This document shows, piece by piece, positions 1 to 51,808 of a stretch of DNA of 58,444 nucleotides; within the stretch, counting starts at the first letter, position 1; each line of letters begins with the position of its first letter. The DNA is from Candidatus Uhrbacteria bacterium. GTDB taxonomy: Bacteria; Patescibacteriota; Patescibacteriia; SG8-24. The translations under genes and the position numbers were made by a program. The DNA lies in assembly GCA_016929435.1 (NCBI GenBank), contig JAFGIV010000014.1, positions 1 to 58,444 on the forward strand, read 5' to 3'. The notes beneath the pieces are model-generated. The model was given only the letters and a program-made list of their open reading frames with translations, was not told the DNA's origin and did not search any database.

Positions 1-64
1 GAGGAAATCCTTGTTGGGTTTCTAAAAATTGCACATTTACAACCTAAAAAGGAGGTGGGTTATG
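1..64 (+). repeat. 64-nt leader (hairpin + SD AAGGAGG + ATG), copy 1; truncated by the window start
   Basis: Positions 1-64 are the exact reverse complement of 4635-4698 (compared base by base). Confidence 0.95.
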
Positions 65-838
65 AAATGGTCCGATCGTCTCTACTTCGGTACGTGGCAA
101 CTCGGAGGACAGTTCAAAAGTCTGTCTAAGGCATATATCGAATCGCTTCTTCTTTTTGCCATCAGTTCCGGTATTCGTCGTTTTGATACGGCGGCCGTCT
201 ATGGCAGTGGCAAGGTAGAGGAGATGCTTGGTGTATGTCTGCCGAAAGATGCAGCCATCGTAACCAAAATTCCTGCGGCATCGAAACCGAATATAAAAAC
301 ACCTGAACCAATCCAGAAATTCTACTCACGAGATGTCATGCATCGAAGTGTGGACGAATCACTGGAAAGATTGCAGCGCTCTTCTGTCGATGTTGCGCTT
401 CTGCATAACTGGCTATCAACATGGTCGGAAGATGCAGTCGCAATCCTCGAGTGTCTAAACGAGCTCAAGGATCAGGGCATGATCCAACGTGTTGGGATTT
501 CTCTGCCCGACAATTTCTCATGCCCCATCAGTGACGCTGTTTTATCGCACATTGATGTGATTGAGGTTCCATTCAATTCGGAACAAAGATGGGTGCTTAC
601 ACAGCTCCCAACTTTAATCGAGTTGAAAAAGGAAATTATCCTGAGAAGCTTGTTTGGTCAAGGAAAACTACTCGCTGGGCGCTCTGCTGAGTCATTGATT
701 CAAGACGCGCTCGAACTCGAAACGTCTGTTGTTATTGGTATGACAACGGAAGAACAAATCACCAAAAACATCAACTGCTTAAGAGGAACATCGGGAAGTA
801 TCACGCCGACCGAAGAAGTGACCAACAACAACCACTGA
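62..838 (+). CDS. Aldo/keto reductase family protein
   Basis: FGTWQLGG, FDTAAVYG (catalytic D/Y), TK and LLHNW motifs; ATG at 62 after AAGGAGG (the ORF-track TTG at 29 lies in the leader). Confidence 0.85.
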   Translation: MKWSDRLYFGTWQLGGQFKSLSKAYIESLLLFAISSGIRRFDTAAVYGSGKVEEMLGVCLPKDAAIVTKIPAASKPNIKTPEPIQKFYSRDVMHRSVDESLERLQRSSVDVALLHNWLSTWSEDAVAILECLNELKDQGMIQRVGISLPDNFSCPISDAVLSHIDVIEVPFNSEQRWVLTQLPTLIELKKEIILRSLFGQGKLLAGRSAESLIQDALELETSVVIGMTTEEQITKNINCLRGTSGSITPTEEVTNNNH

Positions 839-875
839 CCCGTCTTGTGTATATCATTAGGCGGGTCATTTTTTT
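836..875 (+). terminator. Rho-independent terminator after the AKR gene
   Basis: TGACCCGTCT/AGGCGGGTCA stem followed by T7. Confidence 0.8.
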
Positions 876-892
876 GAAAAAAACACAAAATC

Positions 893-1516
893 ATGTATAA
901 TAAAATCATGAATAAGGGTTTTTTGTTACTTACATCAACAGGCCTCACGTCCCCGAATATTTATGAAAAATTTAGGGGTCTTGTTTCTGATCCCAAAAAA
1001 CAGTCAGTTGCCATCATTACCACGGCAGCTGAAGGTAAAGAAAATAACAAGTATTCACAGCTCGCAAAGAAGCAGTTTGAGAGTTTGGGTTTTGTAAACG
1101 TAGATTTTGTAGACCTCGAAACACAGCCAGAGAAAGACTTCTCGCCTTACGGGATCATTTATGTCTGTGGAGGTAATACTTTCAAGCTTCTTAAATTTGC
1201 GAAAAAGGCAAACTTTAAATTATCTATCAAGAAGTTGCTTGAGCGAAACGGAATATACATAGGAGTAAGTGCAGGAAGCATTATTGTTGGTCCATCTATC
1301 AATATCGCTAATGAAGTTGAACCTGACCCCAATGACGTTGGTTTAGAGGATCTTACGGGTTTTGACATAACTAGTCTGATTGTCCTACCGCATTATTCCC
1401 CGGAAATGGAAACTGAAACGGATAATTTTGAGAAAAAATATAGGCTTATTGTAGAACGTTTAGACAACTCACGGGCTATTTTGATTGATAATGGCGAAAA
1501 GACTTTTATTGAATAA
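893..1516 (+). CDS. Peptidase E (S51) / type 1 glutamine amidotransferase-like protein
   Basis: IYVCGGNTF, GVSAG (nucleophile Ser) and LPHY motifs; visibly AT-rich. Confidence 0.85.
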   Translation: MYNKIMNKGFLLLTSTGLTSPNIYEKFRGLVSDPKKQSVAIITTAAEGKENNKYSQLAKKQFESLGFVNVDFVDLETQPEKDFSPYGIIYVCGGNTFKLLKFAKKANFKLSIKKLLERNGIYIGVSAGSIIVGPSINIANEVEPDPNDVGLEDLTGFDITSLIVLPHYSPEMETETDNFEKKYRLIVERLDNSRAILIDNGEKTFIE

Positions 1517-1519
1517 AAA

Positions 1520-1543
1520 GGAGGCACACTTTCGTATGCCTCC
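1520..1543. terminator. Hairpin between convergent genes, probable bidirectional terminator
   Basis: GGAGGCA/TGCCTCC stem with an A-run on the left. Confidence 0.6.
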
Positions 1544-1546
1544 AGG

Positions 1547-2302
1547 TTAGAGCAACCTCTTAATTTTACCCACCACATCCGCCACCCTTTCTCTCCTTGA
1601 GACCTTCAGGGCGACTTCATAGATGAGCAGGTCCGAAGACCTAAGGAGCTTCGCTTGTTGTTCAAGCGATCGAAATCCACGGAAGTATCTTTGGCTGCGG
1701 GCAAATGCAAGCCGAACCATCGAGGCTGTAACATCCGAGAGGCATATTTCTCGCTCGATAGTTGCATTTTCACGCAATTTCTCAAGTGTTGAGAGTTTCT
1801 GCCTGATCTCGTCAGTACACAACTCAATGATAGATTTCGAGAGCGAAACAGGGTAAGGAACAAGCAGTTCCCTGAGTCGGATATTGATGTCCGTAACATC
1901 ATATAGAGTCTCGGCAGTTGCCAAGTCCCCACACAACGCTTCCGGCAACCAATATCCGGTAGCCCAAGGACGATGTTGACCGCCCAGATTCCTGCCCTCG
2001 ATCCACCCCTCGACCTGCTTGACGAGTAAGGCTGAATCGCAAACTGCGACACCGCCTGATCCCGTCGGCATATCAAAGCGAACACTGTCGTCGCACACGA
2101 AGAAGCTTCCGGTTGGCCATCGATTTTCCAGTAAGGCCTTGATGGGATGGGAATATTTCTCGATACTCCCCTCATTGCAGCCCGCCAAAAGGTCAATCTT
2201 TCCTTTTGCCAAATTCCTCTTCAGTCCAACATGCAGCAGCACCTTCATGCCACGCAATTCACGCAAAACGTGAGACAGATCGGAGACTAAGCTATTTTTC
2301 AT
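1547..2302 (-). CDS. Nucleotidyltransferase-like protein (DUF4037-like C-terminal part), degenerate catalytic motif
   Basis: IDLL near the N-terminus; LPEALCGDLATAETLYD...LRELLVPYPVSL resembles NTase/DUF4037 proteins; ATGA overlap with the upstream gene and an AAGGAGG SD. Confidence 0.45.
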   Translation of the reverse strand: MKNSLVSDLSHVLRELRGMKVLLHVGLKRNLAKGKIDLLAGCNEGSIEKYSHPIKALLENRWPTGSFFVCDDSVRFDMPTGSGGVAVCDSALLVKQVEGWIEGRNLGGQHRPWATGYWLPEALCGDLATAETLYDVTDINIRLRELLVPYPVSLSKSIIELCTDEIRQKLSTLEKLRENATIEREICLSDVTASMVRLAFARSQRYFRGFRSLEQQAKLLRSSDLLIYEVALKVSRRERVADVVGKIKRLL

Positions 2303-3417
2303 AGTGCCTCCTTGTTTCGTTTCGACTCCTCGAGCTCAATGAGAGCCTTCGGAAATCCGAATGTGGATGTCAGATACTCGATGTCTGATCCGGTCAGACG
2401 GCCATTCCTGCGAGAGACAAGTTTTGCGTATTCTTTCCTCCCGCACTCAAGCCCCCTCTCGAATTTTGACACCTCTTCGGCAAACACAGTCTGCACCGCA
2501 TCAGCCGAGCCCCATTGATTTCCGGATATCACGACAAACTCATCAAATGAGACGGATGTCTGTCGGCAGAGGATGAAAGCCTCTCGAATGAGTTTCCGAA
2601 GGACATAACCCGCCGCTTTGTTTCCAGGCCGAAGCCCTTCCGATACCAGGAGTACTGCCGCTTTGCCGAGATCGGCGAGGCGACACACGGTGGCTCGATC
2701 CTTTTTACGGGATCGCTCCGTGACGGATTCGATCACGCCTTTCCAGTTTGAGTTTTCATAATCGCTGCTACAGCATTCGGCTGCCGTGACGATACGATCA
2801 ATGCTCGCTCCCGAATCGGCGGCAATCTTCTCCAGGGGAGACTCGAAAAGCGTCTCGCCCAGAAACTCGGTAAAGACCAAGTTCCAGAGCTCGTTCGACT
2901 TATCCGTGTCTGGATTTCTCCAGACGATCTCCGTGCGAACACCGCATCGATTCTGGGTCGGAGTAAAAGTGACGTTCTTGTCATTGCTGACAGTCCTGAC
3001 ACCCAATTTTTCCCATATTTTCTGCGATGTTATATCTTGTGGGTGCACTGTTGCCGATAGCGTGGCGGGGCTGATCCCTGCACACACTGTCAGATAACGC
3101 CAAGCACTCTCGATCATTACATCCTTCACCTCGGCTTCCTTTCCCTCGTAGAGGGAAAAGTGACCGAGCATGTCGAATGCAAGATGGTGTCTTCCCGACA
3201 AACCGATCTTCTCCCATCCGTCTGTCCGCAGGCATGTCTGAACCGAAACGACACGGATCTTCTCAGGGATTGCTCCGTGAGAGATCACATCCTCGAACAC
3301 GACACCGCCAGAGATGTTGAACAGTAGCTTGGGGTTTGCGCTTACGATCGGAATGCTGTTTTGCCACTGGAAACCGAAGGTCCCGAAGTGGCGTCTAATT
3401 TCATCATACGTCTTCAT
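2299..3417 (-). CDS. Truncated alanyl-tRNA synthetase paralog (catalytic + helical domains only; no editing or C-Ala domain)
   Basis: Divergent AlaRS motifs in order: YDEIRRHF, QTCLRTD..GRHHLAFDMLGHFS, ELWNLVF, DSGASIDR, GNKAAGYVLRKLIREA, EEVSKF, LTSTFGFP; 372 aa. Confidence 0.85.
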   Translation of the reverse strand: MKTYDEIRRHFGTFGFQWQNSIPIVSANPKLLFNISGGVVFEDVISHGAIPEKIRVVSVQTCLRTDGWEKIGLSGRHHLAFDMLGHFSLYEGKEAEVKDVMIESAWRYLTVCAGISPATLSATVHPQDITSQKIWEKLGVRTVSNDKNVTFTPTQNRCGVRTEIVWRNPDTDKSNELWNLVFTEFLGETLFESPLEKIAADSGASIDRIVTAAECCSSDYENSNWKGVIESVTERSRKKDRATVCRLADLGKAAVLLVSEGLRPGNKAAGYVLRKLIREAFILCRQTSVSFDEFVVISGNQWGSADAVQTVFAEEVSKFERGLECGRKEYAKLVSRRNGRLTGSDIEYLTSTFGFPKALIELEESKRNKEAL

Positions 3418-4637
3418 GGAGAACCTCCCATTGCCAGATGTTTGAATGCAGTCTGCCTGACTGCGTAGGTGAACTTACTCATCTCGGGATGAGTAACAAG
3501 TCCGTGGTTCATATCCCAACTCACTACGTGAGCCGGAATTCCGAGGCCGTTCAAGATACCCTGTGCTCGTTCGGCTGTCATGTTGTAAACCGAACCTTGA
3601 GTGCAGATTCTCCGCTGGGCCAGAGGGCAGCGAGATGCCTCGCATCCTGATCGTGCGAAAACCTGTACCGAAGTGATGCTCGGAATCCTAAGCATCCGAG
3701 TAAGGGCGCACGACGACTTGAGATAGACGGGGATACCCGGAAAGTGATCGGCGCTCAGTGAGAAGATGGAGTTCACCAGCTCCTGCGGCAACGATTTCAC
3801 GTTGTCATCCCGAGGGATGTCCGGCATGGGGAGCTGGTGAATCTCCACCAGTCCGTTCTCGATACCTTCCGTCCAGCGCAGGCCGCCCGGAACGATCATA
3901 TCGATGACTTCGCCGTAGTGTTTTTTCACCCACAGCATCATCATCTCAATTCTGTCCCGATTACCGCTCCACCCAGGAACGATCGGTCGCATATACCATG
4001 CGATGGTGGCTCCTGCTTCCTTGGCTTCCTCAGCGTTGAGAAAGCGGTTATTGTGCGTGGGCTCAATCGTGTCAGGATTATCTGCCCAGCACAGCGACAG
4101 CATCAAGCCGCGCGTCGCATTCGAGATGCGAGCGAAGTCTAGTTTCCTCCCTTTGGGAACGCCGCCTTTGGTAACGATCCAGAAGGGATTCCGCAGACCG
4201 CGTCGGACGAATCCGTCCATAATCTCGAACGTACTGTCTACGACAGCAGGAGCGAACGGCTCCGTGCTTGCTGTTCCGATGCTGATGATTGTCTCATCAG
4301 CAATAAAGAACGGATGTTTGACCAGTTCATCGAGGATTTGATCTGCGGTAAAATGATTACGTCGTCTTGGTTTTTTCGGCATTGTGCCTTGGTCAGCAAG
4401 ATCTTGATTGGTGTCTTGAACATGACAGTATCTGCACTGCCACGAACATCCAATCCAGAGATCGATACTCAGTGAGCTGTTAGACACGCTGACGCATGAT
4501 AGGGGATGGTTACTGTTTGGCACAAGAACTCCGTATGTGTATTCACGCACAGAAAATTCTCGGCCAGTAGTCATCCCATTGATTGTGACGTGCGGTTCCG
4601 AATTAACGGCCGTAAAGTAGTCCTGCTTAGTTTCCAT
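3414..4637 (-). CDS. Radical SAM enzyme (SPL/SplB-like features)
   Basis: CSWQCRYC (CxxxCxxC), GTASTEPF and VTKG motifs; extra C-terminal Cys cluster CEASRC...C; ATG at 4637 after AAGGAGG. Confidence 0.9.
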   Translation of the reverse strand: METKQDYFTAVNSEPHVTINGMTTGREFSVREYTYGVLVPNSNHPLSCVSVSNSSLSIDLWIGCSWQCRYCHVQDTNQDLADQGTMPKKPRRRNHFTADQILDELVKHPFFIADETIISIGTASTEPFAPAVVDSTFEIMDGFVRRGLRNPFWIVTKGGVPKGRKLDFARISNATRGLMLSLCWADNPDTIEPTHNNRFLNAEEAKEAGATIAWYMRPIVPGWSGNRDRIEMMMLWVKKHYGEVIDMIVPGGLRWTEGIENGLVEIHQLPMPDIPRDDNVKSLPQELVNSIFSLSADHFPGIPVYLKSSCALTRMLRIPSITSVQVFARSGCEASRCPLAQRRICTQGSVYNMTAERAQGILNGLGIPAHVVSWDMNHGLVTHPEMSKFTYAVRQTAFKHLAMGGSP

Positions 4638-4698
4638 AACCCACCTCCTTTTTAGGTTGTAAATGTGCAATTTTTAGAAACCCAACAAGGATTTCCTC
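4635..4698 (-). repeat. 64-nt leader, copy 2 (inverted relative to copy 1), upstream of the radical SAM gene
   Basis: Exact reverse complement of 1-64. Confidence 0.95.
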
Positions 4699-4705
4699 CG
4701 TCGTT

Positions 4706-4734
4706 CTTTTAACACAAATTCGTGTTTTATGCAA
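4706..4734 (-). promoter_or_regulatory. Putative sigma70 promoter for the radical SAM operon with an operator-like inverted repeat in the spacer
   Basis: Minus strand TTGCAT-17nt-TAAAAG; AACAC-N6-GTGTT at 4711-4726. Confidence 0.45.
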
Positions 4735-4763
4735 GCCCGCTCGCATCAGCGACGTTCTACACT

Positions 4764-4935
4764 AGTTGCACCGACTTGGCAGGATAACGGTCTTAGAACA
4801 TGGGATCCAAAGATACGCAACACGGGGAATTCAACCTTGCCGAAAGGCGGGGGAGACAGCCCATGCGTTCAGGCGCTGCGTCGAGACCCTGCCGCACGGG
4901 TTCGTCCGGTCCGTGTCCTTTCCGACGCTGCAACT
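4764..4935 (+). ncRNA. Candidate structured ncRNA of unknown family
   Basis: Five mutually compatible helices including a GAAA-capped hairpin; the G-U pairs work only on the + strand; no credible ORF. Confidence 0.4.
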
Positions 4936-5025
4936 GAAACTTGAGTTTCGGGGGGGGTGACATGTCGATGGGCGGATGCGAAAACGGGTCTCATGGCTGA
5001 AACCCGCCTTTTCGTTGCCGTAATG

Positions 5026-5100
5026 TGGTGCGGGCGGAGGGAATCGAACCCCCATTAACGGTTCCGAAGACCGCCGTTCTGTCCGTTGAACTACGCCCGC
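5026..5100 (-). tRNA. tRNA-Arg(UCG)
   Basis: Cloverleaf, anticodon loop CT-TCG-GA, GGTTCGATTCC T-arm, encoded CCA. Confidence 0.95.
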
Positions 5101-5272
5101 CTGTTTTGCCTGTCAAAAATAGCAGTTTCGGACGGATTTGGGAAGGGGTTCGTGGGGGTTGATATAAAACCGAAAGTATGCCATGATGAGTAATCATCCG
5201 ATAATGGATGGTGGCCGCCGCCGGAAGGCTGCGCAAACCGCATATTTAAAAACCAAAAAACGAGGAGGAAAA

Positions 5273-6088
5273 ATGTTCATGATTGGCGATAGGGTCAAGG
5301 TTGTCTCTTCTGTCCTTCACGACGGGACGGCGACCGTCACCGGTCTTTACGAGAAATTCGTGGGGTGCAACAATTCCGGGCTGAAACCCGGAAAGTACAC
5401 TGACCGAGAAAGCGTTGTCCTGACGCACGATGACGGTCGGACCGAACCGGTAGGGGTTGACCGTTGCCGTTTGGCCGATTCGGAACTGGCCGCCAGGCGG
5501 GAAAGTGAGGAGCGCGCCTGGCTGGAACAGAACCCGGGTCTCGACCTCAGGGAACGGGACCGTGTGGGGGACTTGCCCGAGGAGTTCTTTTGGGAAGGGG
5601 ATTCGGTCAGGGTGGTTGGCGACCGTTTTCCGTCCCTCGGTTCCGGTACCTTCCGTATCGTTCGGGCCGTCTATGACGGTCTTCCGCAATGGTTGCCGGA
5701 GGGATGTAAAAAATACCCGTTTTACTCCCTTGAGGGAGAGGACGAATCAAGATTTTTTCCGCAGGATTGCCTTAGTCTGGCGGAAAAGGGGACTGTCCGC
5801 CTGTTTTACGGCGGAGGGTATGTGTTCTTTCCCAACATTTGGGAACAGGCCAAATTCTACGACCGAATAGGTCATGCCTGGCGGATCAGGAACCCCAAGG
5901 ACGGGACATACGAATGGACCGTGGAGGGAGTCCGAACGGCGATCCGAAACGGGATCGCCCACGGCTATGAGCAGGCAAAAGGCGATGTCGGTCCGGCCTG
6001 TGCCGTCAGGTTCAGGGATGAGTCGTTCGGCAAATGGGTGGCCTACAACACCCTGATCGGGGTGTCGTACGCAATAATTGTTTTTTGA
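5273..6088 (+). CDS. Hypothetical protein with two KOW/SH3-like starts (IGDRVKVV, EGDSVRVV)
   Basis: Long ORF, GAGGAGG SD before ATG 5273, lies between two tRNAs. Confidence 0.7.
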   Translation: MFMIGDRVKVVSSVLHDGTATVTGLYEKFVGCNNSGLKPGKYTDRESVVLTHDDGRTEPVGVDRCRLADSELAARRESEERAWLEQNPGLDLRERDRVGDLPEEFFWEGDSVRVVGDRFPSLGSGTFRIVRAVYDGLPQWLPEGCKKYPFYSLEGEDESRFFPQDCLSLAEKGTVRLFYGGGYVFFPNIWEQAKFYDRIGHAWRIRNPKDGTYEWTVEGVRTAIRNGIAHGYEQAKGDVGPACAVRFRDESFGKWVAYNTLIGVSYAIIVF

Positions 6089-6395: not shown

Positions 6396-8891
6396 ATGGA
6401 TCTATTGGCGATAATCGGGTCTTTGATTGCGGGAACCGTGGCGGCCGTGGTGGCGTTCGCCTGTTTTTTCCTGATACACAGGGAGTTTCGCCGTCGGAGA
6501 CAGCCCCACCTACTGGTTTTTTCCCTGGCGTTCCTGGCTTGCGGTCTCGGTTTTTCGGCCCTGTTCGTGTCCCGGTGGGCTTGGGCGTATGCCGCCCTTT
6601 CGGCCTCCGTTTTCGGTTATGGCCTGGCGTCCTTCTTCCTGACCGTTGTCCCGTTTTTGGTGTTGGAGGGGGTATCCAGGATTCGGGGCGGACGTTTCGT
6701 CGCCTGGAGAAGCCTGGCCAATGCTGTTGCCGCATTGGCCTTTCTCCTTATCCTGGCGGTTTGGGACCGAGGATCCCTGTCCGCCTTCTTTCCCGGAATT
6801 TCGGGTGGTGCCGGCGGTTGGCCGCTCCACACCCTGACGGTCATTGCCTGGGTATTGGGACTTGCGGGCCTGGCGGCCGGTTTTCTGGCCCGCAATTTGG
6901 GATTCGGGACCCGTCGGTTAGGTGGGCTTTCCCTGGCCAGTTTGTCGTTTGGCATTTTCCTGGGGGCCCTAGTCCTTTCCGGCCGGAACATCGGGCTGGT
7001 TCCGGCGGTCTATGCGTCCGTTTCGGTGTTCATGATCCTTCTTTCCCTGGCCGTTTCCGCTTTCGGACACCCGGACCGGGAGGTGACGGACCGTCCGTGG
7101 CGCATGGTCCAAAGGAGCCTGACCTTCAAGGCGGTCATATTCAACGTGGTGTCCTTCTGGGTGATGTCGTTCCTGGTGATGGCGATTGCGGTGCTTTATT
7201 TCGTCCGCCTGGATGTCCACGGTAAGCAGTTGGCGGTTACGGACGGCACTGTCCGGATGTCGAAATGCGTTACCAACGCGAAAGACTCCGCCCTCCAGGC
7301 GGTCCAGTTCCTCTCCTTTTCCTCCAGGCGATCCCCGATCGTGGCCAGCGGTGACGGTTGGCGGTCGGACGGGACGGAATATTTGCTGGACGCCAACCGG
7401 AGCCAGTTCATTCGGATACTGGACGGCGGCGGGAGGGTGATTTACGGGAATTTTGGATCCGACGAGATCGGACGGGATTTCATCGGGTTGAGGGCCGTCC
7501 AGGGAGCCTTGGCCGGCCGGTCGCTGTCCTTCCTGGAGGAGGATCCCGGATTCGGTAGGGTAATGCTGCAGGCGGCCGCCCCGGTTTCCCTGGAAGGCGG
7601 AAAACAGGGGGTCATTCTCCTGTCCCGCCAGATGGACCTTTGTCAGGATACGGTATTTGGGACCGGTCTCATGCCGACGGGTTTCGGGATGGTTGACCGG
7701 TTCGGCCGCCCGATCGTCAGTGCCGGGCATCCCATTGACCTTAGGCAGGCGACGGCCGAATACGTCACGGCCGACGACGTTCTTTCCCTGATCAGGGAAG
7801 GGCACGGCGGATTGGCGGCCGTTGAGGCAATCGGCGACGCGGACGGCCGGATCGAGGCTTTCGTCTTTTCCCACCTTTCCCCGACCGTGATCCATGCGGG
7901 GGCCGTTCGCCTGGCGGCCGTCATCATACTCATCCTTTTGGCGGCATTGGCCATGATAACGGTCGTCCTGACCTACAGCCTGACCGGCCTGGTCCGGCCG
8001 ATTCGGGAGATGCGGAAGGTGGCGAGGGCCGTCGAGTCAGGCGACTACGGAAGGAGGGTTTCCCACGGCGGCCAGGACGAGCTTGGCCAGCTGGCCGTTG
8101 GTTTCAACCGAATGGCCGTGACCATCGGCGAACAGACCGAACGGCTGCGCCGTCAGATGAGGGAGCAGGAGGATTTCCTGATCAACACCGCCCACGAGAT
8201 GAGGACACCGATCAACATTTTCAGCTGGACCGTTGACCTGATGCGTTTCGGGGATACTGGCCGGATGAACAAGTCGCAGCTGGACCTGGTCCATCAGCTG
8301 AGGCAGACGACCGACCGGCTCTCGGCCCTGGTCCAGAACCTCCTGGATACCGCCGAGATGGACCGGGGCGGGATTTCCGTCCAGGCAGAGGACGTCAACC
8401 TTTCCGACATAATCGATGCCGCCGCGGCGCTCATAACCGTCCGGGTCAAGGAAAAGAGGCTGGAGATGCTTTGGGAAAGGCCGGAACCGGCCATGATGGC
8501 CGTCGGTGACGGGAAGCGCATCCGCCAGGTCTTGGATAACCTGCTGGGAAATTCCGTGAAGTATTCCCATAAGGGGGGACGGATACGGATATCACTGGCT
8601 CCGGCCAGCCGCCGTTCGCCGGACGGCCCGAAGGGGAAGTACCTGAAGGTTACCGTTGAGGACAACGGCCGCGGCATCCCCAAGGACGAGCAGCATCGGG
8701 TCTTCACCCGCTTTTTCCGGTCCAGGAACGCCGTGGCCGGGGACATCGAGGGTGCCGGATTGGGTCTGCATATCGTCCGGCGGCTGGTGGAACTTCAGGG
8801 CGGTGAGGTCTGGTTCGAATCGGTCGAGAACGTAGGCAGCGTCTTCAGTTTCACCGTCCCGGCCGCCTCGACCAGGAAATCCCAGCATTGA
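6396..8891 (+). CDS. Multi-TM sensor histidine kinase (N-terminal TM bundle, extracytoplasmic Cache-like region, HAMP, HisKA, HATPase)
   Basis: H-box TAHEMRTPI, N-box NLLGNSVKY, G1 DNGRGI, F-box, G2 GAGLGL; HAMP ...DELGQLAVGFNRM; TGGTATAAT upstream. Confidence 0.92.
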   Translation: MDLLAIIGSLIAGTVAAVVAFACFFLIHREFRRRRQPHLLVFSLAFLACGLGFSALFVSRWAWAYAALSASVFGYGLASFFLTVVPFLVLEGVSRIRGGRFVAWRSLANAVAALAFLLILAVWDRGSLSAFFPGISGGAGGWPLHTLTVIAWVLGLAGLAAGFLARNLGFGTRRLGGLSLASLSFGIFLGALVLSGRNIGLVPAVYASVSVFMILLSLAVSAFGHPDREVTDRPWRMVQRSLTFKAVIFNVVSFWVMSFLVMAIAVLYFVRLDVHGKQLAVTDGTVRMSKCVTNAKDSALQAVQFLSFSSRRSPIVASGDGWRSDGTEYLLDANRSQFIRILDGGGRVIYGNFGSDEIGRDFIGLRAVQGALAGRSLSFLEEDPGFGRVMLQAAAPVSLEGGKQGVILLSRQMDLCQDTVFGTGLMPTGFGMVDRFGRPIVSAGHPIDLRQATAEYVTADDVLSLIREGHGGLAAVEAIGDADGRIEAFVFSHLSPTVIHAGAVRLAAVIILILLAALAMITVVLTYSLTGLVRPIREMRKVARAVESGDYGRRVSHGGQDELGQLAVGFNRMAVTIGEQTERLRRQMREQEDFLINTAHEMRTPINIFSWTVDLMRFGDTGRMNKSQLDLVHQLRQTTDRLSALVQNLLDTAEMDRGGISVQAEDVNLSDIIDAAAALITVRVKEKRLEMLWERPEPAMMAVGDGKRIRQVLDNLLGNSVKYSHKGGRIRISLAPASRRSPDGPKGKYLKVTVEDNGRGIPKDEQHRVFTRFFRSRNAVAGDIEGAGLGLHIVRRLVELQGGEVWFESVENVGSVFSFTVPAASTRKSQH

Positions 8892-9808: not shown

Positions 9809-11491
9809 ATGGCGTTGGAGATATCGGAACTCAGGAAGATGCTGGTCGGTTCCGGCCTGGTGCCGGAGGCGGATTTCGAGGCGGCGGTTCGGGAATCGTC
9901 CGAATCGGGCCAGTTCCTGGACCGGATACTGGTGGAACGGGGCCTGGTGCCGGACGAATACCTGGGACAGATGGTCGCCGAGGGGTTCGGTGTCCCCTTC
10001 GTCAGCCTCGGCAGTCGGGAGATACCGGATGAAACCCTGCGAATCATCCCGGAACGGGTGGCCCGGCGTTCCCGGATGGTGGCTTTCGGCAGGGACGGCT
10101 CCGGAAAGGTCCTGCTGGCCATGGCCGACCCGACCGATCTGGAGACGATACGCCTGATCGAGAAGAGGGCGGGGGTGCCGGTGGTCGTCCATTACGCCAC
10201 GGACGTCGGCCTGGCCCGGGCCCTGGAACGGTATTCGACGGACCTGGAAAGCGCCATCCGCGGGGTTCTGGACCGGAAGGGCGCGGACGGCGATGACGGG
10301 GAGGGGATACCGGTTACGGTGGTGGAGATGATTTTGGGGTATGCCTTCCAGAGCGGGGCATCGGATGTCCATATCGAGCCGCAGCAGAAGGGCATTGCCG
10401 TGCGCTATCGGGTCGACGGCATTCTCCACGACAGGGTCAACCTTCCGAGGGACCTGCTGGACCCGATAATCAGCAGGATCAAGGTGATGTCCCGAATGCG
10501 GACCGACGAGCATTTTGCGGCCCAGGACGGGAAGTTCCAGGAGGTCATCGACGGCAGGCGGGTGGATATCCGCGTCTCTGTCCTGCCGGTCGTGGACGGT
10601 GAGAAGGTGGTGATGAGGCTCATGGCCGAGAAGGGCCGGCGGTTCGACCTGGCGGATCTGGGATTTTCCGTCGATGACCTGAAAAGGATCCGCCACCACA
10701 GCCAACGGTCATACGGCATGATACTGGCGACCGGCCCCACCGGGTCCGGCAAGACCACCACCATGTACGCCGTACTGAAGACCCTGAACACCAGGGACGT
10801 AAACATCGCCACCATCGAGGACCCGATCGAATACGCCATCGAGGGGGTCAGTCAGATACAGGTGAACCCCAAGGTCGGACTGACGTTCGCCTCCGGGCTG
10901 CGGTCCATAGTCCGCCAGGATCCGGATATCGTCATGGTCGGGGAGATACGCGACGAGGAGACGGCCGGGATCGCCGTGAACGCCGCCATGACCGGGCACC
11001 TGGTCCTTTCCACCCTCCACACGAACGATGCCGCCACCACCCTGCCGCGTTTCAGGGACATGAACGTGGAACCCTTCCTGATATCGTCGTCCATCAACCT
11101 GATAATCGCCCAAAGGCTGGTCCGGAAGATATGTTCGCGCTGCATCGTAAGCGCCGACGTTACCGAGGAGGAGTTGGGGGAGAGGATGTCCGGGGACATG
11201 GTAAGGGAGCTTTACCGCCTTCGGACCTCCAGGAAGGGGCCGTTGCGCCTGTATCGGGGAAAGGGGTGCGTCCACTGCGGCAATACCGGTTACTCCGGAC
11301 GGATCGGCATCTACGAGCTGTTGGAGGTTACGGATGCCGTTCGGGAACTGATCATGGCCGAGGCCAACGCCAAGGTGATCCGCGGGAAGGCCGTTGAGGA
11401 GGGAATGACCACGATGCTGGAAGACGGTTTCCGGAAGGCGATTTCCGGACAGACGACGATCGACGAGGTTCTCCGGGTCGCCGGAGAATAG
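9809..11491 (+). CDS. pilB: Type IV pilus assembly ATPase PilB/GspE
   Basis: Walker A GPTGSGKT, Asp box TIEDPIE, Walker B MVGEIRD, His box HLVLSTLHTND, Zn CxxC...CxxC. Confidence 0.95.
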   Translation: MALEISELRKMLVGSGLVPEADFEAAVRESSESGQFLDRILVERGLVPDEYLGQMVAEGFGVPFVSLGSREIPDETLRIIPERVARRSRMVAFGRDGSGKVLLAMADPTDLETIRLIEKRAGVPVVVHYATDVGLARALERYSTDLESAIRGVLDRKGADGDDGEGIPVTVVEMILGYAFQSGASDVHIEPQQKGIAVRYRVDGILHDRVNLPRDLLDPIISRIKVMSRMRTDEHFAAQDGKFQEVIDGRRVDIRVSVLPVVDGEKVVMRLMAEKGRRFDLADLGFSVDDLKRIRHHSQRSYGMILATGPTGSGKTTTMYAVLKTLNTRDVNIATIEDPIEYAIEGVSQIQVNPKVGLTFASGLRSIVRQDPDIVMVGEIRDEETAGIAVNAAMTGHLVLSTLHTNDAATTLPRFRDMNVEPFLISSSINLIIAQRLVRKICSRCIVSADVTEEELGERMSGDMVRELYRLRTSRKGPLRLYRGKGCVHCGNTGYSGRIGIYELLEVTDAVRELIMAEANAKVIRGKAVEEGMTTMLEDGFRKAISGQTTIDEVLRVAGE

Positions 11492-11501
11492 CCGCAAGCC
11501 C

Positions 11502-12731
11502 ATGTCATACGGTTATGTAGCGTCAACCGGCGAGGGAAAGCTGGTTCGGGGGGTGTCCGAACTGTCCAGCCGGAATTCGGTGATCCGGGACCTGGAATCC
11601 CGGGGCCTGGTCGTGGTTTCGGTCGATCCGGTCCGCCGTTCCCGGTCCTTGGTCCGATTCAGCCTCCGTTCCCTTGGACTGGTCAGCCACCTGGACAAGA
11701 TGATATTCATCAAGCACCTGACCGTCATGGTCAAGGCCGGACTGTCGCTCCTGGAATCCCTGAGGATCCTCCGGGAACAGGCCGCCTCCTTCCGGTTCCG
11801 GATGATCCTGGGGGAGGTAGTCTCCTCGGTCGAGAAGGGGGGAAGCCTTTCCGATTCCCTGGCCCGTTTTCCTAAGGTGTTCTCCGCGTTTTTCGTCAAT
11901 GTAGTCCGGTCCGGGGAGACCGCCGGAACCCTGGAGGGCAACCTGGAACACCTGTCGGAACAGTTCTCCAGGGACCACGAGCTTCGGGGCCGGGTCCGGA
12001 GCGCCATGATGTATCCGGTTTTCGTTATCCTGGCGGCCTTGGCGATCGGCTTCTATTTTGCCCTGTACATAATTCCGCAGGTCGCCGGTCTTTTCGGCGG
12101 ATTGGGGGGGATTGAGATGCCGCTGGCCACCAGGGTCATGATGGGCATTGCCGGCTTTGTCAGGAATCACGGCCCGGCCCTTGCCATCGGAACCGTCGCC
12201 GGCCTGGCCTTTCTGGTCTGGCTGTTGCGGCGGAGGTTCATCCGTCCCCTGACCCACGGCATCATCCTGAAGGTTCCGATTTTCGGGAAGCTCGTCCGGA
12301 ACATCAATTCGGCCCTGTTCTGCCTGGTGTTCGGCACCCAAATGCGCAGCGGCATCCCGATCCTCCAGGCCCTGGAGGTTACCGCCAGCGTCTTGGGGAA
12401 CTGGCACTTCCAGCAGGCCATCCTGGCCACGGCCGAATCGGTCCGGCGCGGGCAGTCCCTTTCCGAAAGCCTGGCGGAACACCCCCGGGTGTTTTCCCGC
12501 CTGACGGTCCGGATGGTGGAGGTTGGGGAACGGTCCGGCCGGCTGGACGAGATACTCGGTTTCCTGGCCGATTTCTACGGTCTGGAGGTCGAGACGACCA
12601 CCAAGAACCTTACGACGATACTGGAACCGGTCATGTTGGTGACCATCGGCCTTCTGGCCCTGGGGCTGGCCTATGCCATCATCATCCCGATCTACAATTT
12701 CGTCGGTTCAATCGGGAACATGGGGCGATAG
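11502..12731 (+). CDS. pilC: Type IV pilus platform protein PilC/GspF
   Basis: Two T2SSF repeats (GE..GTLE..L; MVEVGERSGRLDE), VRSAMMYP, LEP. Confidence 0.93.
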   Translation: MSYGYVASTGEGKLVRGVSELSSRNSVIRDLESRGLVVVSVDPVRRSRSLVRFSLRSLGLVSHLDKMIFIKHLTVMVKAGLSLLESLRILREQAASFRFRMILGEVVSSVEKGGSLSDSLARFPKVFSAFFVNVVRSGETAGTLEGNLEHLSEQFSRDHELRGRVRSAMMYPVFVILAALAIGFYFALYIIPQVAGLFGGLGGIEMPLATRVMMGIAGFVRNHGPALAIGTVAGLAFLVWLLRRRFIRPLTHGIILKVPIFGKLVRNINSALFCLVFGTQMRSGIPILQALEVTASVLGNWHFQQAILATAESVRRGQSLSESLAEHPRVFSRLTVRMVEVGERSGRLDEILGFLADFYGLEVETTTKNLTTILEPVMLVTIGLLALGLAYAIIIPIYNFVGSIGNMGR

Positions 12732-13252: not shown

Positions 13253-16200
13253 ATGCCGACCTTCCGCCGCCATCGCCATACCGGGGGTTTCTCCATATTG
13301 GAGGCGATCATTTCCGTCGCCGTTTTCGGCATCCTGGCCTCCGGCGTCATGATGCTCGTTACCGGCCCGATGTCCGTGGCCAACAAGTCAGCCGATCGGC
13401 AGCGGGCCCTGTTCCTGTCGGAGGAGGGGGTCGAGGCCAGCCGTTCGATCCGCGATGAGGGTTGGGCGGGGCTGGCGGTCGGTAGCCACGGCCTGAGCTC
13501 GGTTTCCGGCCGGTGGCGGTTCAGCGGCCCGGAAGACTCCACTCCCGACGGATTCACGAGGGTGGTCACCGTTTCCGAGGTCCGGAGGGATACGGAAGGG
13601 AACATCGTCGTTTCCGGAGGCAATCCGGACAAACGGACCCGTCAGGTGACGTCCACGGTCAGCTGGGACGACTTCGGCCAGGTCCGTTCGGTCAGCTCCG
13701 TCGCCTACCTGACCGACTGGGACACCTACGACTGGAGACAGTCCACGGACGGGGATTTCCTTCCCGGAACCAGGAACGGCACGCGTATATCCGGCAGCGG
13801 GGAACCGGCGGCCGTGGAGCTGGCGCCTGCCGAAGGGAAGCTCTGGACTTCGGCCGAGGGGAACCTGATCACCCACACGACCGATACCGACTGGTCAGGC
13901 GGCTCTTTCGCGGATACGGAGCTGGTCGGTTCGGGAACGGATGCCTCCATTGCCGAATCCGGACCGATGCGTTGGGTGGAGATCCGGTCCGGCAAGTCGT
14001 TTTTCCACACGACCGACACGGATTTCCTTTCCGGCACCTTCAGCGGCACGGTTGCGGAAGGCACCGGGGACCTGGGTTCGCTGACGGTCGACCGGACTGA
14101 AGGGTGGTCCGTTTCGGTTTCCCCCACCGGTCAGGATATCCGCGGCATTTACATGTTGAGCGATACCGACGGCTGGGCGGTCGGGACAAGCGGCACCATC
14201 CTCCGTTGGGACGGAACTGTTTGGTCGGTATTCGCCGATACCGGCAGTCAGGCCTGGTCCGGCGTCAGCTGCGTCTCGCCCGACGACTGCTGGGCCTCCG
14301 GGGACAGCGGCCGCATCGCCCGCTGGAACGGCACCTCCTGGTCCCAGTTCGTTGACCTGGGGAACCAGGCCTGGTCCGGATTGGCCTGTACGTCATCTTC
14401 CGATTGTTGGGCCGTGGGGAATAGCGGCCGCATCGCCCGCTGGAACGGCACCTCCTGGTCCCAGTTCGTTGACCTGGGGAACCAGGCCTGGTCCGGCGTC
14501 AGCTGCGTATCGTCCGACGACTGCTGGGCCTCCGGGAATAGCGGCCGCATCGCCCGCTGGAACGGCACCTCCTGGTCCCAGTTCACGGATACCGGCAGCC
14601 AGACCTGGAAGGCCGTCCGGATGGTTTCGGCTGCGGACGGTTGGATTACGGCCACAAACGGCAATATCCGTCGCTGGAACGGATCGTCCTGGGTCAGTGT
14701 CGCCTCTCCTACCGCACAATCCCTCAACGGGCTGTTCTGCCTATCGGCCAACGTTTGTTTGGCCGTCGGCGGAAGCGGAATCATCATCGGATGGAACGGC
14801 ACCGCTTGGAGTCAGGTGACTGATTTGGGCGGCCAGGTTTGGTCCGGAGTCGCCTGCGCCTCCTCGGACAGGTGCTGGACAGTCGGGGATGACGGAAACA
14901 TGGCCCGGTACGGTCCCCATTTCCTGCCTTCCGGCACGTACCTGTCGGACGTTTTCGATGCCGGGGAAACGGTCGATTGGGGCTATGCCTTCTGGTCCGA
15001 AAGCCTGCCGGACAACACCGAACTGACCGTGGCGTTCCGTTCCGGCAACGTCCCGGTTCCGGGCGGGTCATGGTCGGCCTGGAGCTCGGAATACACCGAT
15101 CCGGTGAACACCCAAATCCCGTCCCCCTCCTCCAGGTATTTTCAGTATAGGGTCAGCATGTCCACCGGCGATCTCGACGTTGCCCCCAGGCTAGAGGCGA
15201 TTGCCGTGTACTACAACCAGCCTCAGCCGGTCAGCTATTTCGACATGAAGACGATCGGCGATACGGACGGCTGGGCCGTCGGACAGGGCGGGGCCATTGC
15301 CCGTTTCGACGGCAGCGAGTGGTCGTCATACCCGTCGCCCACCTCCAGCACGCTTTACGACGTTGATTTCGCTTCGGCCGACGACGTTTGGGCGGTCGGG
15401 GCCAACGGCACCGTCATCCACTGGAACGGCAGCTCGTGGGGTGCGGTCAGCTCACCGACATCCTGGGCCCTTTACGGCATCGATATCCTGCCCGACGGAA
15501 CCGGCTGGGCCGTCGGCCGGAAGGGGACGGTCATCGAGCTGCGCGGTAACGGGAATTGGTATTCCGCCGTTTCCCCTACCGCCCGTGACCTGAATGCCGT
15601 GAGTCTGGTTTCCGGGACGGACGGGTGGGCCGTGGGAAACCAGGGTTCGGTAATTCGCTGGAACGGCACGGCCTGGTCGACCGTTTCCGTTTCCTACAGC
15701 CAGCGGCTAAACGGTGTCCATGCGGTCAGCGGATCGTTTGCGGTGACTGTCGGCCAGGGCGGGACAGTGTTCGTTTGGGACGGTTCGTCTTGGGTCGGGA
15801 GCGATTCCACCGTATCCAACGAGCTTTTGGATGTCTGGTGCCGGTCAACGGACGATTGTTGGGCCGTCGGCATCCAGCAGACCTTCGTCCAGTGGGACGG
15901 AACCGGATGGTCACAGTACTATTTCAGCAACCCGTCCAATCCCGTAGTGCAGGGGGTTTTTCTCCCGTTGGCCGGTGACGGTTGGGCGACCGGTGAGGGC
16001 GGGGCGCTTTACCGCTATACCGCCTATCGCCAGCCGGTTGCCTACTATACCGGTCCGGCCGTGGATTCCGGTGAGGACGGTGCGGTCTGGAACACGGTCA
16101 GTTGGGAATCCCTCCAGCCCCTCCTTACCGGCCTGTCGGTTTCGGTCCGGACCGGTCCGACACCGTCCCCCGACGGGTCCTGGTCGGCCTGGTCCGGTGA

Positions 16201-17314
16201 GCTTTCGGACGGGGGAGGTTCTACCGTCACCTCGCCGCCCGGACGGTATCTTCAGTACCGGGTGACCTTCACCAGCGGAGATCCGGCGGCCACGGCCGTC
16301 CTGCAGGAGATCGGGATGGTTTGGGGGGCGGTTACCGGGCAGGAACTTCAGGACACCGACGGTTCTGCGGTCAGCGACGTTTGGGCCGTCGGCAGGTCCG
16401 GAACGATCGTCCATTATGACGGCCTGTCATGGTCGCCTGCGGTATCCCCGACCGTCCGGAGCCTGTTTGGGGTGGCGGTTTTGGGCGCCAATGACGCGTG
16501 GGCCGTCGGCGACTCCGGAACGATCCTGCGGTACGACGGCTCGGACTGGTCACAGGCCGCTTCCCCGACCCCGAACGGGCTGCGCGGGGTTGACCTGTCG
16601 GGTACTGATTTCGGTTTTGCCGTCGGCGACTCCGGAACGATCCTGCGGTACGACGGCTCGGACTGGTCGGCCGTCGCGTCGCCCGTATCGGCCAGGCTCA
16701 ATTCCGTTTTTTTGGAATCGTCCGATTTCGGCTGGGCCGTGGGCGACTCAGGCACGATCCTCCATTGGGACGGTGTTTCGTGGTCGTCCGTGCCGTCACC
16801 GACGGTCGTCAGGCTGAATGCCGTAGAGAGCCGTTCGGTGAACGAGGCCTGGGCCGTGGGCAATTCCGGGACGATAGCGTATTGGGACGGGTCCGAGTGG
16901 TCGTCGTTCTCCTCCCCGACGGCCAGGGATCTTTACGGCCTGACCGTCAGGGCCCCGACCGACGGTTGGGCCTGCGGCAACCGGGGTGTCCTTTTGCGCG
17001 ACCCGGAATCCTATCCGCCGACCGGCACCTTCATCTCCACCGTGCTGGACGCCGATTCCCTGGCCGAGTTTAAGACCGCCTTTTGGGAAGGGGAATACCC
17101 TCCGGGGACGGCCGTGACGGTCGCCGTCAGGAGCGGCGATGTGGCCGTGCCGGACGCCACCTGGACGGGATGGAGCCCTGAGATGTCCGGCGATTGGGGG
17201 GCACAGCCGGTTACGGACGGGCGGTATTGGCAATACCGCCTTACCCTGACCACCGGCGATCCGGCCCTGACCCCGTCGTTCCAGGCGATAGTCTTCACTT
17301 ACATGCTACGGTAA
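13253..17314 (+). CDS. Giant minor pilin (1353 aa) with three Trp-rich beta-propeller (YCF48/BNR-like) blocks
   Basis: GG|FSILE prepilin motif; about 20 repeats of ~40 aa (WAVG..GTI..WDG..W); three QYR-containing beta-sandwich segments. Confidence 0.85.
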   Translation: MPTFRRHRHTGGFSILEAIISVAVFGILASGVMMLVTGPMSVANKSADRQRALFLSEEGVEASRSIRDEGWAGLAVGSHGLSSVSGRWRFSGPEDSTPDGFTRVVTVSEVRRDTEGNIVVSGGNPDKRTRQVTSTVSWDDFGQVRSVSSVAYLTDWDTYDWRQSTDGDFLPGTRNGTRISGSGEPAAVELAPAEGKLWTSAEGNLITHTTDTDWSGGSFADTELVGSGTDASIAESGPMRWVEIRSGKSFFHTTDTDFLSGTFSGTVAEGTGDLGSLTVDRTEGWSVSVSPTGQDIRGIYMLSDTDGWAVGTSGTILRWDGTVWSVFADTGSQAWSGVSCVSPDDCWASGDSGRIARWNGTSWSQFVDLGNQAWSGLACTSSSDCWAVGNSGRIARWNGTSWSQFVDLGNQAWSGVSCVSSDDCWASGNSGRIARWNGTSWSQFTDTGSQTWKAVRMVSAADGWITATNGNIRRWNGSSWVSVASPTAQSLNGLFCLSANVCLAVGGSGIIIGWNGTAWSQVTDLGGQVWSGVACASSDRCWTVGDDGNMARYGPHFLPSGTYLSDVFDAGETVDWGYAFWSESLPDNTELTVAFRSGNVPVPGGSWSAWSSEYTDPVNTQIPSPSSRYFQYRVSMSTGDLDVAPRLEAIAVYYNQPQPVSYFDMKTIGDTDGWAVGQGGAIARFDGSEWSSYPSPTSSTLYDVDFASADDVWAVGANGTVIHWNGSSWGAVSSPTSWALYGIDILPDGTGWAVGRKGTVIELRGNGNWYSAVSPTARDLNAVSLVSGTDGWAVGNQGSVIRWNGTAWSTVSVSYSQRLNGVHAVSGSFAVTVGQGGTVFVWDGSSWVGSDSTVSNELLDVWCRSTDDCWAVGIQQTFVQWDGTGWSQYYFSNPSNPVVQGVFLPLAGDGWATGEGGALYRYTAYRQPVAYYTGPAVDSGEDGAVWNTVSWESLQPLLTGLSVSVRTGPTPSPDGSWSAWSGELSDGGGSTVTSPPGRYLQYRVTFTSGDPAATAVLQEIGMVWGAVTGQELQDTDGSAVSDVWAVGRSGTIVHYDGLSWSPAVSPTVRSLFGVAVLGANDAWAVGDSGTILRYDGSDWSQAASPTPNGLRGVDLSGTDFGFAVGDSGTILRYDGSDWSAVASPVSARLNSVFLESSDFGWAVGDSGTILHWDGVSWSSVPSPTVVRLNAVESRSVNEAWAVGNSGTIAYWDGSEWSSFSSPTARDLYGLTVRAPTDGWACGNRGVLLRDPESYPPTGTFISTVLDADSLAEFKTAFWEGEYPPGTAVTVAVRSGDVAVPDATWTGWSPEMSGDWGAQPVTDGRYWQYRLTLTTGDPALTPSFQAIVFTYMLR
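14249..14599 (+). repeat. Three tandem 117-nt (39-aa) near-identical blades within the giant pilin
   Basis: QAWSG...GRIARWNGTSWSQF repeated three times, with long identical DNA stretches. Confidence 0.85.
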
Positions 17315-32725: not shown

Positions 32726-32862
32726 ACGGTGTTTACCTTAACAGAAACTATTTTTTTTGGCTATGCATAGCTGATTTATTGTTATTTTTTGTCTCTTGAC
32801 ACCATCAATTAAGGCTTATAAAACTTAATCGCCGGTAATTCGTAAAATAAAAATATGGTGCT

Positions 32863-51693: not shown

Positions 51694-51808
51694 ATAAGGG
51701 CAATATGCATAATCCTCATATTGTTTTTTCTTCTATAAATACGATAATATACGCTGTGTAGGCTTGACGAGCCGTGGAATCGTCCACTCTATCAGACTCC
51801 TTTCCATT

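Follow-up and report, generated by a model that had tools for sequence, protein, structure and literature searches.

Inverted copies of a putative promoter–leader module at the ends of a radical SAM–aldo/keto reductase cassette of Candidatus Uhrbacteria: a probable co-expression device kept identical by recombination

The contig JAFGIV010000014.1 of Candidatus Uhrbacteria bacterium (assembly GCA_016929435.1) opens with 64 nucleotides (nt) that recur in inverted orientation at the other end of a gene block. In both places the repeated sequence runs up to a start codon, on one side that of an aldo/keto reductase (AKR) and on the other that of an unrelated radical SAM enzyme. Why should two unrelated genes that point towards each other be preceded by one and the same leader? 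A preliminary description of this DNA offered three readings: (a) a shared cis-regulatory leader tying the AKR to the radical SAM operon, (b) an invertible segment, and (c) a repeat with more copies in a larger island, which could also explain a contig break. We analyzed the window, that is the complete contig of 58,444 nt with base 1 as the contig end, together with related loci (numbered L001 onward). The comparison favors the first reading: the two arms are probably inverted copies of a single promoter–leader unit, serving as a co-expression device that is kept identical by recombination, rather than parts of a switch.

The inverted identity is exact, with positions 1–64 being the reverse complement of 4635–4698, and the match reaches 67 nt if one mismatch is allowed. 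With up to three mismatches allowed, a 36-nt repeat core was recovered at these two sites only, with no third copy in the window, and chance matches to the core arose in none of 100 shuffles. The identity ends at base 65, the first base past the ATG, where the AKR reads AAA and the radical SAM gene GAA. In relatives it reaches 5–7 nt into the coding sequence, and in the window it is shortened to the ATG because of a G-to-A change in codon 2 of the AKR. Both genes are preceded by the leader and are convergent, as had been described, and the leader does contain a strong Shine–Dalgarno (SD) sequence and an 8-bp hairpin with G-U pairs: its strands, GGAAATCC (3–10) and GGGTTTCT (16–23), form two such pairs and fold with −9.4 kcal/mol (z = −3.7). 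The first copy is indeed truncated, though by the contig end and not by the choice of the window. The features concerned are:

1–64, plus strand: AKR-side arm, truncated by the contig end; exact reverse complement of 4635–4698
3–10 and 16–23, plus strand: hairpin of the AKR-side arm, with its loop at 11–15
32–44, plus strand: conserved box CACATTTACAACC of the AKR-side arm
49–57, plus strand: SD sequence AAGGAGGTG of the AKR-side arm
62–64, plus strand: ATG of the AKR-side arm
62–838, plus strand: AKR, 258 aa, first gene of the AKR-side unit (Pfam PF00248, E = 6e-27)
3414–4637, minus strand: radical SAM enzyme, 407 aa, with a CxxxCxxC motif; distantly Rv2578c/SplB-like
4635–4746, minus strand: radical-SAM-side arm, complete module; start codon at 4635–4637, 64 nt matching the other arm at 4635–4698
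4706–4734, minus strand: promoter-like site of the radical-SAM-side arm, with −35 TTGCAT (4729–4734), a 17-nt spacer and −10-like TAAAAG (4706–4711)
4747–5025, no strand: spacer between the module and tRNA-Arg, unrelated to the extended long arms of relatives

An alignment of 12 distinct variants of the repeat supports the view that the 64 nt form the 3′ portion of a putative expression module of about 105–110 nt, comprising a promoter-like region, the hairpin, a box, the SD sequence and ATG-GAA-T. The core begins with a −35-like hexamer (TTGCAT/TTGTAT), a 17-nt spacer and a −10-like TAnAAn, with the hexamers and the spacing kept in the 12 variants. About 7 nt past the −10-like hexamer follows the 8-bp hairpin AGAAATCC-N4-GGATTTCT, and then come AAAATTGCACATTTACAACC, AAAAAGGAGGTG and ATGGAAT. 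In the short-armed L004 and L010, the similarity between the arms begins 2–3 nt upstream of the −35-like hexamer, and the homology of the radical-SAM-side arm of the window to the modules of L003, L004, L010, L011, L041, L045, L052, L061 and L063 stops at about 4746. It is from this conservation, and from the point where homology ends, that we infer the module promoter. In the window, the full core is visible on the radical SAM side (4635–4746), and the AKR side is cut 64 nt before the arm end. An imperfect palindrome noted earlier, TTGCA-CATT-TACAA, did not hold up: its left half varies in relatives (TCACA, CGTAC, AGCAC) without a compensating change in the right half. What is conserved among the module variants is the box ACATTTACAAC, and a homologous box is found in the leaders of single-operon AKR relatives.

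Two further candidate features of the module were discarded. An in-frame TTG at 29, which as a start would lengthen both proteins by 11 codons, is ruled out by 1-nt and 3-nt indels that relatives carry there. An SD-sequestering helix from RNAalifold displays U-A/U-G changes only, and its 5′ partner is kept where its 3′ partner differs. Rfam covariance models recovered a tRNA as the sole match in window 1–6000 at E ≤ 1, and none in the long arm of L011 (8350–9050). The long arms found in some relatives carry about 300 nt of non-coding DNA upstream of the promoter (L011 8573–8890; L003 1–194; L041 3400–3610; L063 9546–9890). These feature conserved hairpins, with CUGGGGA in loops and compensatory changes between loci in stems, that have no Rfam match.

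The module is present in 13 further locus families, twice and inverted in each, at the ends of the same cassette, in which a radical SAM operon faces an operon coding for the AKR and an S51 peptidase. Thus, homologous radical SAM and AKR genes elsewhere do carry the leader, before both operons, in keeping with reading (a). The copies never exceed two per locus and always lie at the cassette ends (719 kb examined). The arms of relatives range from 107 to 462 nt: at least 118 nt in L003, 109 nt (94.5%) in L004/L005, 107 nt (88%) in L010, 435 nt (99%) in L011, about 408–419 nt in L050–L057 and 462 nt (100%) in L063, with a module pair also found in L041, L045 and L061. Both arms are internal to long contigs, with unique sequence around them, in L004/L005, L010, L011 and L063. 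The closest relative of the window is L063, with 87–88% nucleotide identity across the cassette. The inverted pair is present in contigs from JGI, ENA, NCBI and Logan, and from many samples. A 27-mer of the module gave no match in viral contigs and matched only one other contig in the JGI metagenomes.

Comparisons between arms showed a clear relationship between their similarity and the locus in which they reside. The mean divergence is 0.026 within a locus versus 0.165 between loci over the 64-nt region, and 0.039 versus 0.178 over the core of about 108 nt. The between-locus divergence is equal for same-side and opposite-side comparisons, and the nearest neighbor is the other arm of the same locus for 14–15 of 16–18 arms. 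This similarity within loci irrespective of side points to concerted evolution. Further, the fusion junction, which is identical in all loci, indicates that the module was duplicated once and that its arms were homogenized afterwards. Gene conversion or reciprocal recombination between the arms probably keeps homogenizing the copies, as the comparison suggests; this homogenization has lapsed in L010 (88%), L004 (94.5%) and L064. The last of these, a close relative, is also peculiar in that its radical SAM gene has ATA rather than ATG as start codon (13370–13627); its arms have diverged, and its radical-SAM-side arm is similar to the window in the loop and the box.

The origin of this arrangement can be approached from the position of the cassette genes, which we mapped in all loci found with the radical SAM protein. 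In most of the loci outside the clade of the window (L012–16, L018, L020–21, L023–31 and L033–40), the AKR gene immediately precedes the radical SAM gene, with both on one strand; distant relatives (41–54% identity) in Firmicutes and Bacteroidota metagenome-assembled genomes share this layout. That the two genes share one operon in the common layout is further evidence for a leader that ties them together. By the outgroup criterion, the single operon, with the order AKR, radical SAM, optionally a homolog of alanyl-tRNA synthetase (AlaRS) and a 251-aa protein, would be the older state. At the junctions read in close single-operon relatives (L012–L018), the stop codon of the AKR and the start codon of the radical SAM gene overlap as ATGA, and the radical SAM protein begins with M-N-S-K; in the duplicated loci, the radical SAM gene starts with ATGGAAT and its protein with M-E-x-K. 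In the clade of the window, where the AKR gene sits at the far end pointing inward, the radical SAM start (ATG GAA T..) matches the AKR start (ATG GAA TGG), and this AKR-like start continues in frame into the radical SAM gene from its codon 3 on (TCC AAG). L022 has the module before the AKR only; its radical SAM protein still begins with M-N-S-K, and the region upstream of the radical SAM gene is a different one. These patterns suggest an origin in two steps. First, the AKR gene with its promoter and leader would have moved to the far end of the cassette, facing inward, a stage seen in L022. Second, a copy of the AKR module together with its first two codons would have replaced the region upstream of the radical SAM gene. 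Both units would then receive the same transcription and translation signals, retaining the co-expression of the former operon.

The hairpin in the presumptive 5′ untranslated region (UTR) shows signs of acting as RNA. Across the module variants, pairing is kept in 98.9% of cells. The changes at four pairs are confined to one side, each leading to G-U, and one pair is changed on both sides (C-G to U-A in L022). L045 displays a symmetric loss of one base pair with a re-registered stem, and the stem is longer by one pair in L041, L061 and L063. On the sense strand the hairpin folds with −6.9 to −10.2 kcal/mol in all variants, whereas the antisense folding of the G-U variants is much weaker (from −9.4 to −3.1 in the window; from −10.2 to −5.3 and from −7.5 to −4.7 in the two copies of L010). 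This maintenance of sense-strand folding while the antisense collapses favors a role in RNA, most likely as a 5′ stabilizer or a protein-binding site near what would be the 5′ end of the mRNA.

Several points weigh against the foregoing interpretation. A scan with an E. coli-type consensus does not call the module promoter, position 6 of the −10 hexamer not being T, and the AKR-side arm of the window is seen for 64 nt only, such that a promoter there would have to be taken from relatives. Statistically, the covariation signal of the hairpin is weak, its score being reached in 76 of 500 shuffles, and the full leader of the window folds no better than shuffled sequence (z = −1.2). A DNA operator is possible, because the stem sequence is highly conserved and forms a perfect DNA palindrome in most variants, and so is a protein-bound RNA hairpin. 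Finally, independent repeated duplications could in principle mimic concerted evolution; the identical fusion junction speaks against this.

The arms bound a cassette of two convergent units, whose remaining features, along with the flanking tRNA gene, are:

837–876, plus strand: putative terminator-like stem (837–842 / 862–867) followed by a T run, after the AKR gene; read by eye
874–901, plus strand: promoter-like site TTGAAA-16-TATAAT before the S51 gene; 11 of 12 consensus matches in a scan
908–1516, plus strand: peptidase S51, PepE/cyanophycinase-like (Pfam PF03575, E = 5e-27)
1520–1543, no strand: terminator-like hairpin between the two convergent units, from a scan
1547–2302, minus strand: conserved 251-aa protein, last gene of the radical SAM operon, which accompanies the radical SAM gene in nearly all loci
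2299–3417, minus strand: stand-alone homolog of the AlaRS catalytic domain, 372 aa (Pfam PF01411, E = 2e-41)
5026–5100, minus strand: tRNA-Arg(TCG), with its 3′ end towards the cassette

The terminator scan did not call the stem after the AKR gene (837–876), on account of its loop of 19 nt. Relative to L063 (10738–11990), about 1.2 kb coding for a second AlaRS-like protein have been lost from the window between the AKR and S51 genes (838–908), and it has in their place the terminator-like hairpin and the strong promoter-like site at 874–901. The AlaRS-like protein (2299–3417) scores far under the TIGR00344 cut-off. The 251-aa protein has no match in Pfam (low threshold included), NCBIfam, PADLOC or PDB; PDB sequence searches with it and with the radical SAM enzyme returned nothing usable, and the PADLOC defense-system models matched none of the cassette proteins. 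Across lineages, the radical SAM, AKR, S51 and 251-aa genes are constant while a gene of the aminoacyl-tRNA synthetase (aaRS) type is interchangeable, being AlaRS-catalytic-like (one or two copies), AspRS-core-like (304 aa, with no anticodon-binding domain) or class I LysRS-like (507 aa). Genes of this type lie at 11221–12339 and 13815–15107 in L004, 1041–1955 in L003, 2786–4305 in L050 and 2299–3417 in the window.

The genomic contexts of the cassette are those of mobile DNA. The block has a GC content of 38–55% compared to about 60% in the rest of the contig, which represents the host, and the tRNA genes abutting the cassette differ between loci: Arg in the window and L004, Tyr in L022, Gly in L043, Leu in L011 and L053, and Val in L063. 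Such different tRNAs and neighbors across lineages mark the cassette as horizontally mobile cargo, and together with the foreign composition they indicate horizontal transfer. The spacer beside the tRNA-Arg of the window and its 271-aa open reading frame (ORF) bear no relationship to those of L004. An ORF beside tRNA-Arg with two alternative start codons has no record that we found in other assemblies, and no second copy of the tRNA-Arg 3′ end was found in the contig. On the tRNA side, the window retains the core module only.

A large serine recombinase of 550 aa, with Resolvase, Recombinase and zinc-ribbon domains, is coded beside an arm in L011, L045 and L051–L054. In L011, an 8.5-kb unit, in which the cassette between its two arms is followed by the recombinase, is bracketed by a 44-nt direct repeat that overlaps the 3′ end of tRNA-Leu(TAA). 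In the L053/L050 family, tRNA-Arg(TCG), tRNA-Leu(CAG) and the recombinase gene precede, in this order, the cassette with an arm on either side, after which comes a different flank with tRNA-Gly. For the last 57–74 residues of the recombinase there are two coding copies in inverted orientation, one of which reads into an arm while the other abuts a tRNA-Leu 3′ end; which of them belongs to the intact gene differs between the two lineages (L011 15044–16696 and 16758–16934; L051 137–1663 and 1866–2036). A simple inversion of the block fails to explain the position of the recombinase in L011 relative to L045/L051–54; the two arrangements are instead circular permutations of one gene order. L063 and L004 keep remnants of the recombinase region without the gene, and the gene was likewise not seen in the visible part of the window. 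In L041 and L043, from samples with an identical radical SAM protein, a 179-nt segment upstream of the arm is inverted (L041 3067–3245 versus L043 150–328); in L043 it is preceded by tRNA-Gly(TCC), whose 3′ end recurs as an 18-nt direct repeat at the end of the segment.

In the long-armed relatives, a copy of the recombinase 3′ end and an att-like boundary stand at the start of each arm. Tentatively, the recombinase-bearing element might be symmetric as a circle, with a recombinase arc and a cargo arc lying between inverted arms, and might integrate via either arm. We consider this model rather doubtful; integration via either arm would account for the two linearizations seen in L011 and in L051–54. 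If true, the inward-facing promoters would guarantee expression of the cargo however the element lands, and the circular two-arm element would constitute a new integrative element architecture in Patescibacteria, with a cassette of interchangeable aaRS-type genes.

Given this mobility, might the arms be a dispersed mobile promoter element, akin to a miniature inverted-repeat transposable element, or the terminal repeats of a transposon, with no specific tie to the genes they precede? The long arms (408–462 nt) would fit, being non-coding and structured, carrying remnants of the recombinase 3′ end and stopping at a fixed outer boundary beside att-like sequence, and insertion sequences (IS) do enter the cassette. 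However, we judge this improbable: in 719 kb no locus has a third copy, the copies all sit at the ends of the cassette, and the 27-mer is missing from viral contigs and has just one further match in the JGI metagenomes, which is not the pattern of a dispersed element. Moreover, the arms are bounded on their inner side by a gene fusion, in frame at codon 3; their leader box has a homolog in the single-operon AKR leader; and they are without a transposase. Nor are they IS copies, since they are non-coding except for the remnant of the recombinase 3′ end. Reading (c) accordingly stands in part: the island-like mobile DNA and the contig break caused by the repeat are borne out, but additional copies are not.

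As to mobile sequences proper, single lineages harbor an IS inside the cassette: L003 (2650–3665) has a frameshifted IS30-like transposase, and some members of the L050 family have an IS200/IS605-type Y1 transposase (L051 4477–4920; L052 4452–4895; L059 2102–2545). L010 features a dispersed repeat of about 90 nt, with at least 4 copies in 16 kb that are 88–94% identical (3573–3654, 7302–7396, 8741–8861 and 15988–16057), one of them just outside the radical-SAM-side arm.

Reading (b), a programmed invertible segment, holds that a site-specific recombinase flips 65–4634 such that a promoter outside is fused at the ATG to either gene set, resulting in phase variation. Exact inverted repeats do bound convergent gene sets, the homogenized arms show that the copies recombine, and a serine recombinase gene does lie beside an arm in the six loci named above. 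We nonetheless find it very improbable. First, the promoter-like region lies inside the arms wherever both are complete, and an inversion would therefore leave expression unchanged. Second, in five contigs of one family, from different samples, the side adjoining the radical SAM gene is always that of the recombinase, and in L050 it is the other flank that lies beside the AKR; no swapped outer flank was found in L050–L057 or in L041/L043. Third, the recombinase is of the large integrase-type class, its position is explained by integration at tRNA genes, L063 and L004 keep the arms without it, and the 20 window ORFs tested right of the block include no recombinase. Fourth, the arms have drifted in L004 (to 94%), L010 (to 88%) and L064. 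Rare inversion of the RecA type between exact arms of 64–462 nt may be expected and may form part of the homogenization by which, on our preferred reading of a co-expression device, the arms are kept identical.

The repeat also has a bearing on why the contig ends at base 1. In relatives L003, L041, L045, L050–L052, L055–L057 and L061, the match between the arms is exact up to the contig end that truncates one of them, and the contig-end overhangs inside the repeat measure 122–123, 126 and 141 nt, and 30 nt in Logan, across several assemblers. These lengths correspond to k or k−1 of common assembler settings; the 64-nt overhang of the window matches no standard k. In the Logan assembly (k = 31) of run SRR13394437, the unitig L001 of 4,630 nt equals window 35–4664 and has exactly 30 (k−1) shared nt at each end, the mark of a de Bruijn graph in which the two ends of the block lead, in opposite directions, into a single node. 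The comparison thus suggests that the contig ends where it does on account of the inability of short-read assemblers to cross an exact inverted repeat of length k or more. The repeat systematically breaks short-read assemblies, and this accounts for many cassette-only contigs of 5–6 kb. That the first 64 nt are merely a false inverted copy of 4635–4698, from the assembler or from chimeric reads, is hardly credible: inverted duplication at a contig end is a familiar form of artifact and the copy is placed exactly at such an end, but the independent k = 31 assembly breaks precisely where the copies diverge at both ends, five loci (L004, L005, L010, L011 and L063) hold both arms between unique flanks, and the same architecture recurs in assemblies of many samples from four sources.

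Elsewhere in the window, we observed a REP-like palindromic repeat family with the core CCCCCAATACTGGGGGA, which is intergenic and occurs in both orientations in the host part of the contig (25685–25734, 33874–33923, 42538–42587, 42998–43031, 43115–43148 and 49548–49597). In-frame tandem repeats are found in a 1,353-aa Ycf48/BNR-like ORF at 13253–17314 (117-nt, or 39-aa, units) and at 32930–33476 within 32809–33732 (21/42-nt units). Near the far contig end lie genes for an EcoRI-type adenine methyltransferase (51764–53014) and a GmrSD-like (DUF262/HNH) endonuclease (54032–55201).

We found no description of the cassette or of its arrangement in the literature. The arrangement combines phenomena of known kinds, namely promoter duplication, concerted evolution of inverted repeats and the cargo of integrative elements. 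It offers a natural example of how an operon might be split without losing co-regulation, by copying the promoter, leader, ribosome-binding site and first two codons to a second gene. The cargo is widespread in Patescibacteria, and the shared leader, as a sign of joint expression, provides a handle on the role of the cassette.

With respect to known systems, the closest parallels on the side of mobility are small site-specific integrative elements at tRNA genes, namely genomic islands with large serine recombinases and elements of the tycheposon type. Alike are, in several relatives, the combination of a recombinase with few cargo genes in a short unit, the association with tRNA 3′ ends, the direct repeat in L011 and the foreign composition in the window. 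Unlike these elements, the cargo here lies between long inverted arms that carry putative promoters, the 3′ end of the recombinase gene has a second, inverted copy, and the window has no visible recombinase. The proposed circular form, with two arcs split by inverted arms, may be likened to the 2-micron plasmid and the plastid genome.

The Mu G segment with Gin, the P1 C segment with Cin and the Hin system of Salmonella share with the present locus a block of a few kb, convergent gene sets and inverted repeats that extend into the 5′ ends of genes. In those systems, as usually described, the promoter and a constant gene part lie outside the segment, the recombinase sites measure 26–34 bp and a small serine invertase is coded adjacent to them. 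Here, in contrast, the putative promoter is inside arms of 105–462 nt, no invertase is found among the 20 ORFs right of the block and no alternative orientation was seen. At the level of the leader, the 5′ stem-loop stabilizers of E. coli ompA and of B. subtilis aprE and ermC likewise consist of a stable hairpin within a few nt of the 5′ end, which in our case is a predicted one. The present hairpin is kept on the sense strand only, and the strong conservation of its stem sequence would fit a protein-binding site as well.

Finally, the tufA/tufB genes of enterobacteria, the inverted repeats of plastids and those of the yeast 2-micron plasmid are likewise maintained as inverted copies that are identical within a genome while diverging between genomes, and there too the arms separate two unique regions. 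The homogenized units in those cases are whole genes, rRNA operons or repeats with the FLP target, whereas the unit at the ends of this cassette is a module of promoter, 5′ UTR and start codon that serves two unrelated genes.

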